From IMG/VR virus record IMGVR_UViG_2526164630_000021: 20,872 nt of DNA; one strand, written 5' to 3'. The first letter of the stretch is position 1. The number at the start of each line of letters is the position of its first letter. Positions 1 to 3,000 of the stretch are shown here, piece after piece. The stretch comes from a virus (taxonomy: Duplodnaviria; Heunggongvirae; Uroviricota; Caudoviricetes). The position numbers were made by a program.

Positions 1-3000
1 GTTGAATGGTACAGTTCTCTACCGGTTTTCCTGTGCCGTCTTTCAGTACACCTGAAATCTTTACTGCCATATTCACCCCACAAAAAAGCCCGCCTGAACC
101 GGCGGGCTGTCATAACACTGTGTTACCTGGCTAATCAGAATTTATAACCGACACCCACGATGAAACCGTCAGTGCGCCAGTCGCCACTGCCGGAGCCTTC
201 ATAAGCAATATCAATGGCCACGGATTCGGTCGGGTTAAACTGCACGCCAGCTCCCCACGCCAGAGACGTGTTGCTGTGGCGACCGTCATCACTTCCGGTC
301 AGCACATCGTGCGTTTTCCCCTTGTTGTCAGTTACGCGAAGATAATCCCCGGAGAAAGTCGACACACGGCTGTAAGCCACACCCGCCATCGCATACGCGC
401 TGAACCATTCATTCACGCGCACAGACGGCCCCGCCATTACGCTGAACCAGCGGTTACGCACGGAATCTTCATGCCAGCGGGTATCGCTGTAACGGGTAAT
501 CTGGCGATTCTTGTCTCCTGCATAGCTGAATGACGTCACCATCCCCAGTGTGTCCGTGAATTCATAACGGTATTTCACGTTAATCCCGTTCAGATTATCG
601 CTGCCGGGAGCGTTCGTCGGGGCATGAAGATACCCCGCGCTCAGCGTGGCCTGCTGTTCAGATGCCCATGCAGGCGCACCGGATACGGTCAGACAAATGG
701 CTGCGGACAAAATGGCGGCATAAAGTTTACGCATAATTACCTCTCGCTTTTCTGCAATAAAAAAGGCGTCATTTCTGACGCCCGTTATGGGTTATAAAAT
801 TCAGCTGATACTGATACCTGCTGTGGATTTTTTCATCACCACAACCAGCAGATCGCTGATACTGGTTGTTGGTGTCCAGTTATTCGCTCCTGATGAAGAT
901 ACGGTGAATGTCAGTGTCAGCGTCCCCTGTCCGGCAGGCATATCTATAACTGAGGAAAATACGCCCTGAGCATCCGTCGTGGACTGATTAAAAATCTCCT
1001 GACCATTGCGGGTCACTCTTAACCGGCAGGTTGAATACCAGTATGACTGTTGGTTATTACTGTTGAAATTCTCATGCTTACCACCGCGGAATAACACTGG
1101 CGGTATCATGACCTGCCGGTCAAATTTCTGATCATCACTGATTCTTACCGTGATGGTGCCACTGGCATAACTGTTCGTGCGGGGGAAAGACTTGCTGACC
1201 GTTTTGACAATATCGCCTTCAATCTGATTGGCTGACAGTTTCCCCTTAATCTGACAGTTCTCATTAATCGTGACGTTGTTGAGCGTCCCTGAGTTCGCAT
1301 TCACACTGCCACTGAACCGCCCCGGGTTTCCTGGAGAGTGTTTTATCTGTGAACTCAGGCTGCCAGATCATCGTTTCCGATGGAAGCATAATAAGCTTTT
1401 TCTGCTTCTGCCGGAGGAATATGGCCCAGCCTTTCCAGCAATCGTCGATTGTTATACCAGTCCACCCACGTGAGTGTGGCCAGTTCCACTTCTGCACGGT
1501 TTTTCCAGCTCTTACGGTGTATTACCTCCGCTTTGTAAAGACCATTGATGCTCTCCGCCATCGCGTTGTCATACGAGTCGCCAGTACTCCCTGTTGATGC
1601 CAGTAATCCGGCTTCCTTAAGCCGCTGCGTGTAGGCCAGCGATACATACTGAGAACCTTTATCACTGTGATGGATTGTGCCGGACGGCCGACGGGCCCAC
1701 AACGCCTGCTCCAGTGCATCCAGCACGAATGTTGTTTCCATGGATGATGAGACCTGCCATCCCACGATGTATCCGGCGAACACATCAATGATGAACGCCA
1801 CATAGACGAAGCCCCGCCATGTGCTTACCCAGGTAAAATCAGCCACCCACAACTGGTCTGGACGTTCTGCCACGAACTGACGGTTTACGCGGTCGCATGC
1901 GGCAACGGCTTTCCGGCTGACGGTAGTGCGGACCTTTTTACCCCGGAGAACACCGGCAAGTCCCATAACTGCCATGAGGCGCGCCACTGTACATCTGGCC
2001 ACTCTGTTACCTTCCCGTAACAACTGACGCCAGACTTTACGCACACCGTATACCTTGTGATTTTCATCGTATACGCGCTGTATCTCTTTCTTCAGCCAGT
2101 CATCGCGCTGCGCACGGGCACTGCGTTTATCCGGATAATGTCGCTGTTGCTGACAGTGGTAATACGTTGACGGGGCAATATGCAGTTCGCTGCATACCGG
2201 TCCGACCCCGTACTGCTCACGCAGCTTATCCAGCAGTGGCATTATTTTTTCCAGAGGCGGTCGAACTCCGCCTTCGCAAAATAAGCGGAAGCCTGGCGAA
2301 GGATATCGTTACTGCGGCGCAGTTCACGATTTTCACGTTCCAGCTCTTTCAGACGCTGACGTTCAGCGGTGGTGAGTCCACCATCACCACTCCCGGTATC
2401 CCGCTCATGCTGGCGAACCCAGACACGCAGAGTCTCCGGCGTACAGCCAATCTTTGGGCAATGGAACAAATTGCCGCCCACTGTGAGTCATATTCATCCT
2501 GACTTTCCAGAACCATACGAATCGCCCGCTGACGGACTTCGGGGGAAAAACGAGTATTTTTAGTCATCCTGTTTACCTCTTTCTCAGGGAGTTTAGTCTC
2601 CAGGATTTCCGGGGCGGTTCACACTGATATCCGCATTTTTAGCGGTTAGCTTTCCGTCTGATGTCAGGGAAAATGCCGGAGGATTGCCACCACTGGTAAT
2701 TGTGGGAGCAATAAGGGTCTTAATCAGCGCTTCATTGATAAACGTCTGTCCCCCCTGCGTGACCAGTGCTGGAGTGGTGTTACCGTTCTCCGGATTAATG
2801 AACGCAATCCTGTCTGCCGCCAGCAGCACCTGACTCTGCATGCCGTCAGGGGTGTTCTCAATACCGGCACCAATACCCGCGATATAAAGGCGTCCGTCCT
2901 GCATCTGCTGCAGCTTCACTGCCCACATGCTGTTCAGGTTATTATTTGTATCAACCTGAACCTTCTGTATCTGCTGAATTGCCGCACTCTGGTCTTCCAG

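Follow-up and report, generated by a model that had tools for sequence, protein, structure and literature searches.

The question raised by this locus is what broke the tail-tip gene J of a lambda-like prophage, and how far the insertion sequence (IS) that lies within J accounts for the loss of the gene. The stretch analysed here (hereafter the window; IMG/VR record IMGVR_UViG_2526164630_000021, 20,872 bp) is the complete contig AIGX01000023.1 of the draft assembly GCA_000250155.2 and carries the late region of the prophage on its minus strand. The accession prefix AIGX denotes Escherichia coli DEC 11C, which is O45:H2, belongs to phylogroup B1, is stx1a-positive and carries eae-epsilon (PMC4959244). 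The host is the enterohaemorrhagic E. coli (EHEC) strain DEC11C (O45:H2), neither O157 nor Shigella. A preliminary description of the window had taken the type of the IS as a hint to an O157:H7 or Shigella lineage, which did not hold: apart from the origin of the contig, the IS is ~95-96% identical to the O157, Shigella and IS1203 types. Overall, we regard it as very probable that an IS629-group element of the O103:H2/O45:H2 subtype transposed into gene J of the lambda-like prophage of DEC11C.

A simple insertion in gene J

The element, an IS of the IS629 group (IS3 family), measures 1,309 bp (positions 1313..2621, minus strand) and is transcribed in the direction of J. It starts with TGAACCGC and finishes with GCGGTTCA, its termini (TGAACC...GGTTCA) being of the TG...CA type of IS3 elements. 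The terminal inverted repeats at the end of its second gene, orfB (IRR, 1313..1337), and at the end of its first gene, orfA (IRL, 2597..2621), are 25 nt long, complementary at 22 of 25 positions (88%) and form the longest inverted pair of the region. Directly outside them the plus strand reads CAC (GTG in the sense of J), at 1310..1312 next to the orfB end and at 2622..2624 next to the orfA end; the interval 1310-2624 reported earlier comprises the IS with both copies of this duplication. Comparison was made with the uninterrupted J allele of the closest complete relative, a prophage of E. coli O103:H2 strain 129 (NZ_AP038976.1) adjoining torT, which aligned in a single piece with the 18,248 bp to the right of the IS (window 2625-20872) at 98.6% identity. 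When 1313-2624 was deleted, window 701-4219 was the same as the strain 129 J with zero mismatches and zero gaps, and the translated junction was identical to the intact allele. Because this empty-site allele has a single CAC and its flanks are contiguous, the target duplication is established by comparison. In addition, flank matches in complete genomes stop at the ends of the IS. The locus is a simple insertion with a 3-bp target-site duplication, and the recognisable inverted repeats, the intact CAC duplication and the agreement with an uninterrupted J allele on which the preliminary description had relied were all borne out.

The intact J allele of strain 129 does not differ from the window across J codons 460-1160, and a Pfam scan of it gave the families FNIII-A_GpJ, Phage-tail_3, Ig_J, Ig_J_second, Phage_Tail_Tip (residues 872-1000) and Ig_GpJ_C (residues 1036-1160). 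The same families match three J fragments in the window, where J sits after I and before lom; the domain order, shared with lambda gpJ (8iyk), and the gene position are those of a lambda-type J, but one uninterrupted frame is not found. The IS lies between codons 991 and 992 of 1,160, with the GTG duplication spanning codons 991/992, and cuts a conserved linker (...AKNADIS|GSVNAN...), detaching the last 169 codons. In lambda J, the equivalent of the cut is at about residue 963 (homology to 8iyk, E = 8e-76). Translation of J would run nine codons into the IS (VNRPGNPGD) and then stop. The fragment upstream of the element (2593..4212, minus strand) extends from about codon 460 (GTG at 4212) to codon 991, followed by the nine IS residues and the stop inside IRL, and matches Ig_J, Ig_J_second and Phage_Tail_Tip. 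The fragment downstream of it (801..1304, minus strand) is an open reading frame (ORF) of 167 aa that covers codons 994-1160 and contains the receptor-binding domain (PF12421, Ig_GpJ_C in Pfam). In agreement with the preliminary description, the IS separates the C-terminal receptor-binding domain from the rest of J, the cut lying just upstream of it.

Over the displayed alignment, no residue distinguishes the detached 167-aa ORF from the C-terminus of 'A8 gpJ' (PDB 9wca/9wcb). A8 is an engineered lambda gpJ chimera with the C-terminus of a natural prophage, and its receptor is OmpC, not LamB (PMC11338833). Judged from this identity, the IS separates a predicted OmpC-type receptor-binding domain from the body of J, and OmpC, instead of LamB, is the receptor to be expected for an intact version of the phage. 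While the receptor-binding domains of A8 gpJ (9wca) and of the window are identical, in the window the domain is split off by the IS and the body is frameshifted (see below).

Identity of the inserted element

The gene orfB (1355..2242, minus strand) is intact and codes for a 295-aa protein with a DDE transposase core, which scored 308.6 bits with the IS3 model NCBIfam NF033516 (cut-off 160 bits) and matched the Pfam families rve (E = 3.2e-26), HTH_21 and rve_3. Its catalytic residues D135, D194 and E230, together with K237 seven residues after the glutamate, form the DD(35)E-K signature of the IS3 family. The gene orfA (HTH_Tnp_1; 2242..2567, minus strand), whose native product has 108 aa, lies in two frames owing to a 1-nt deletion (see below); orfB is in the -1 phase relative to orfA and overlaps its stop codon. 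The sequence shows an A6 slippery run at 2245..2250 (minus strand), where translation would pass from orfA to orfB by a -1 programmed frameshift, and ALIL, the frameshift-stimulating pseudoknot of IS3-family elements, was matched over its full length at 2171..2287 (minus strand; Rfam RF01497, 120.3 bits, gathering score 50, E = 3.3e-31). Thus, the size (about 1.2-1.55 kb in the family), the TG...CA inverted repeats, the two-ORF frameshift layout, the DDE core, the NF033516 match and the 3-bp duplication (3-5 bp in the family) are all those of an IS3-family element.

Full-length relatives, counted at ≥80% of the element length, were found in 3,043 of 5,426 complete E. coli genomes, a match well above chance level. 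The best of these were 99.3% identical and came from O103:H2 and O45:H2 strains, and related complete O45:H2/O103:H2 chromosomes have 26-35 matching places each. The copy in O103:H2 str. 12009 (NC_013353.1, 2185787-2187096), which occupies a different insertion site, showed 99.3% identity over its full length and nine differences from the window IS; besides the 1-nt deletion, these are substitutions, six of them clustered at IS positions 616-653 and the others at 808 and 818. The element was also compared with annotated genome and plasmid copies. Nucleotide identity was 95.8% for one deposited under the name 'IS629 transposase OrfB', 95.65% for one that PGAP calls 'IS3-like element IS1203 family' and 96.3% for one from a Shigella boydii plasmid. 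OrfB was 95.6-95.9% identical to OrfB of copies annotated as IS629 or IS1203, and an IS629-annotated and an IS1203-annotated copy were 96.0% identical to each other. According to the ISfinder rule, isoforms share roughly >95% nucleotide or 98% amino-acid identity. The identities of 95.7-96.3% agree with the published divergence of 4-5% among IS629 subtypes, IS1203 and IS3411 being isoforms (PMC3271280). IS629 is known to generate duplications of 3-4 bp and to have no strict target sequence, and 62% of the O157 copies are in prophages (PMC3271280); in line with this, the element of the window is flanked by a 3-bp duplication within a prophage gene.

The window IS resembles the IS629/IS1203/IS3411 group in size (1,309 vs 1,310 bp), orfA/orfB layout, A6 run, ALIL, DDE core, 3-bp duplication and preference for prophages, and the outermost 13 nt of each terminus are identical to those of the comparison copies. 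It differs from the IS629- and IS1203-annotated copies in its frameshifted orfA and, at ~95.7-96.3% nucleotide identity, represents a distinct subtype. Assignment of the element to the IS3 family, IS629/IS1203 group, O103:H2/O45:H2 subtype is supported by these data, and the earlier designation as IS629-like agrees with the NF033516, Pfam and ALIL matches as well as with the identity to annotated IS629/IS1203 copies. By analogy with the established biology of IS3 elements, transposition would have followed their copy-out, paste-in route, with a staggered 3-bp cut of the target presumably leaving CAC (GTG in the sense of J) on both sides.

Further lesions in J and in the element

Alignment to the strain 129 J revealed a second lesion, a 1-nt deletion at 4221..4222 (minus strand) that changes CTGGAAACG to CTGGAACG (AAA to AA on the sense strand) and shifts the frame after E458 of 1,160 (...TELLE|TQTVDF...). 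The resulting first fragment of J (4101..5594, minus strand) consists of 458 native and 39 out-of-frame codons and would give a product of 497 aa, so that two breaks, the frameshift following codon 458 and the IS following codon 991, leave J in three pieces. In all 15 of the best-matching complete genomes listed, the match to the 4221-4222 region is one base longer than the query, and the deletion was shared by no other genome examined. A mosaic block (4230-4964), which differs from strain 129 by 32 substitutions, has its edge 9 nt away from this deletion. The earlier statement that excision of the IS restores the J frame exactly is thus correct locally, the excised sequence being identical to the intact allele over 701-4219, but not for the gene as a whole: with the frameshift upstream, excision would not restore J. 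The second lesion also means that the IS is not the sole cause of J inactivation and maybe not the first.

The element itself also carries a 1-nt deletion, at 2456..2458 (minus strand; IS position 164), where CCCC in the sense strand of orfA is reduced to CCC: four of four comparison copies have ATTGCCCCAAAG, the window IS has ATTGCCCAAAG. The deletion cuts OrfA to 36 native and 36 out-of-frame residues and divides the HTH_Tnp_1 match between the ORFs 2349-2567 and 2242-2481; when one C was added, OrfA became 100% identical to that of the O103:H2 str. 12009 copy. As sequenced, the copy lacks the intact orfA and orfAB frames of an autonomous IS, a sequencing error being possible, and therefore should be unable to make its own OrfA or OrfAB transposase. 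From its sequence, the copy is probably non-autonomous and would move only with transposase supplied in trans by other copies.

Several observations weigh against our reading of the locus. Both 1-nt deletions (C4 to C3 in orfA, A3 to A2 in J) are located in short homopolymer runs of a draft assembly and may be consensus errors. Neither the 497-aa J product nor the 295-aa OrfB has an exact match in any other contig of the collection, which leaves both without independent confirmation. Moreover, a segment of 38 bp (window 1969-2006, IS 616-653) holds six of the nine positions at which the element departs from its nearest full-length relative, and this block shows one mismatch over 241 bp to copies on O45:H2/O103:H2 plasmids; the interior of the IS may be a recombinant between IS copies or a mixed consensus of several copies in the draft.

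If both deletions were errors of the draft consensus, the simple picture of the preliminary description would be right, with an intact, autonomous IS as the sole lesion of J. We consider this doubtful. Besides their position in homopolymer runs, it is favoured by the fact that the J deletion is unique to the contig and lies next to the mosaic block, where an assembler merging near-identical J copies could err, and by frameshifts at the same C4A3 run of orfA in several other assemblies, some of them clearly error-rich. On the other hand, the runs are merely 3-4 bases long, and the remaining indels relative to the closest prophage interrupt no reading frame of the window; for those in the tape measure gene (10116) and in the terminase gene (20572), the frameshift annotation is on the strain 129 side. 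The same C3 variant of orfA also occurs together with an intact orfB in the finished records CP021335.1 and CP027473.1, which makes it plausible as a real mutation. A 79-aa orfA remnant found elsewhere arises through frameshifts at two neighbouring runs (C4 or A3), partly in error-rich assemblies, and for this reason does not separate a real deletion from an error; at the C4A3 run, either mutations or sequencing errors recur.

The order of the two J lesions leads to a further alternative, to which we give a little less than an even chance: J was already dead from the frameshift after codon 458 when the IS arrived, and the insertion was a neutral event in a pseudogene. Two independent lesions within one gene are consistent with this, as are the late-gene lesions of related prophages (the tape measure gene of strain 129, and its terminase gene with an adjacent IS3-family element) and the finding that most lambdoid prophages of O157 Sakai are defective, one of them through an IS in nu1 (PMC2669165). 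The reverse order, however, fits the data equally, and the order of the lesions cannot be inferred from them because both are private to the contig. It is highly improbable that the IS is not in J at all and that the assembly fused two separate loci at a multi-copy IS. Multi-copy IS elements usually break draft assemblies, whereas this one is spanned, and its interior looks mosaic; yet the flanks are exactly contiguous in the uninterrupted J allele and bordered by a perfect 3-bp duplication, which a join through two different IS copies would not yield. The insertion itself is therefore real, and transposition of an IS629-group element into J is the reading that we retain.

Judging from lambda biology, the prophage would be unable to build an adsorbing tail tip alone. 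The locus is probably a prophage in decay, not a regulated or adaptive device. That it gives rise to no infectious particles, as had been proposed, would not be a safe assumption in an EHEC background, since tail-defective lambdoid prophages of EHEC are still packaged and transferred with the help of co-resident prophages (PMC2669165). Disruption of prophage genes by IS629 is known to be one of the main reasons why EHEC phages vary (PMC4587872), and in Sp4 of O157 Sakai (nu1::IS), as here, an IS knocks out an essential morphogenesis or packaging gene in a prophage that is also otherwise defective, while gene, strain and IS copy are all different. The event is of an ordinary, already known kind and part of routine prophage decay. 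Apart from annotation, its import is small: a further IS629-group insertion is documented for EHEC prophages, this one outside the O157 lineage, and the insertion site could provide a strain-specific marker for DEC11C. For the contig, the annotation should be corrected to a J gene broken twice, a probably non-autonomous IS and a detached domain of the OmpC-binding type characterised by experiment.

Distribution of insertions and prophage context

The insertion is private to DEC11C as far as the data go. Queries with both junctions found an IS at this site of J in none of the 5,426 complete E. coli genomes, and an exact junction search in one genome per species gave no match. A domain scan of one genome per species yielded nine loci, all of them distant. 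Among 80 metagenome loci chosen by a receptor-binding domain of ≥98% amino-acid identity, none contained an IS, and in those with enough sequence megablast alignments span J except for a divergent central block. The only match covering a junction came from strain HM670 (O2:H1, NZ_CP082772.1) and was rejected as a carrier of the same insertion, the site being different. At 5592-6901 of the retrieved locus, HM670 has an IS629-group element that is 96.2% identical, has the same orientation, lies in the same linker of J and is flanked by a 3-bp duplication. In contrast to the window, this duplication is ACC, at the codon aligned to T965 and ~79 bp upstream, and the C-terminal J allele shows 77% identity. 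The J::IS insertion of HM670 is an independent event.

In several complete genomes of O45:H2 and related strains, most of them recorded without a serotype, the copy of the element nearest to that of the window is under or beside a gene for 'phage minor tail protein L', which suggests that IS insertions in tail genes are common in this lineage.

In contigs with the 167-aa ORF, we observed an abrupt start of J homology at a GATATC a short way upstream of the site hit by the IS, the DNA on the left being unrelated. This GATATC lies 1-6 bp from the IS target (window 2625-2635) and coincides with breakpoints in several draft and metagenome contigs (position ~3983-3990 of the retrieved loci); to the left of it are found fragments of terminase genes, a gene for a methyltransferase or non-coding DNA that belongs to a torS-side remnant. 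The look-up by the 167-aa ORF is biased towards breaks near the start of this ORF (ascertainment bias), and none of the three GATATC junction types tested occurred in any of the complete genomes; a recurrent J breakpoint at GATATC was therefore not retained as a finding. Either the junctions are genuine but rare deletions at a fragile site, or they arose in assembly. Deletion mediated by IEE/IS629 from the exact IS site was rejected as their cause, as the remnants retain 5-6 bases that would be located beyond the IS. That the linker of J (codons ~965-992) is a fragile site, a recurrent target of IS629-group insertions and of deletion end-points, is an improbable idea based on two independent insertions in the same orientation ~79 bp apart and on at least four unrelated left contexts at GATATC; if it were true, modules of receptor domain, lom and side tail fibre gene (stf) would be preferentially detached and kept during prophage decay.

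The late genes of the prophage follow one another on the minus strand as the C-terminus of terminase, portal, S49 protease, decoration protein and major capsid protein, then FI, FII, Z, U, V, G/T, H, M and L, and finally a P22-type Arc/Arc/Ant module, K, I, J, lom and the initial codons of the side tail fibre gene. The gene lom, coding for an Ail/Lom outer-membrane protein (135..734, minus strand), lies downstream of J and was identified by the Pfam family Ail_Lom and the PGAP annotation at the homologous locus. Within the tail operon, a gene for a P22-type antirepressor Ant and two small Arc-family genes are located at 7016-8610, between L and K, and this module is also present in the prophage of O103:H2 strain 129. 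The latter prophage has lesions of its own (10028-12606 and 20730-23806 of the retrieved locus), namely a frameshifted tape measure gene and a frameshifted terminase gene without its N-terminus, directly beside which an IS3-family element is found; in the window, the tape measure gene is intact (859 aa). The window ends inside the gene for the large terminase subunit (20849-20872) and, on the other side, shortly after the start of the side tail fibre gene (1-70). At the terminase end, the alignment to the relative is gappy over the last ~24 nt and the terminase frame meets a stop codon just where the contig ends; this probably reflects the end of the contig itself or the border of a further repeat.

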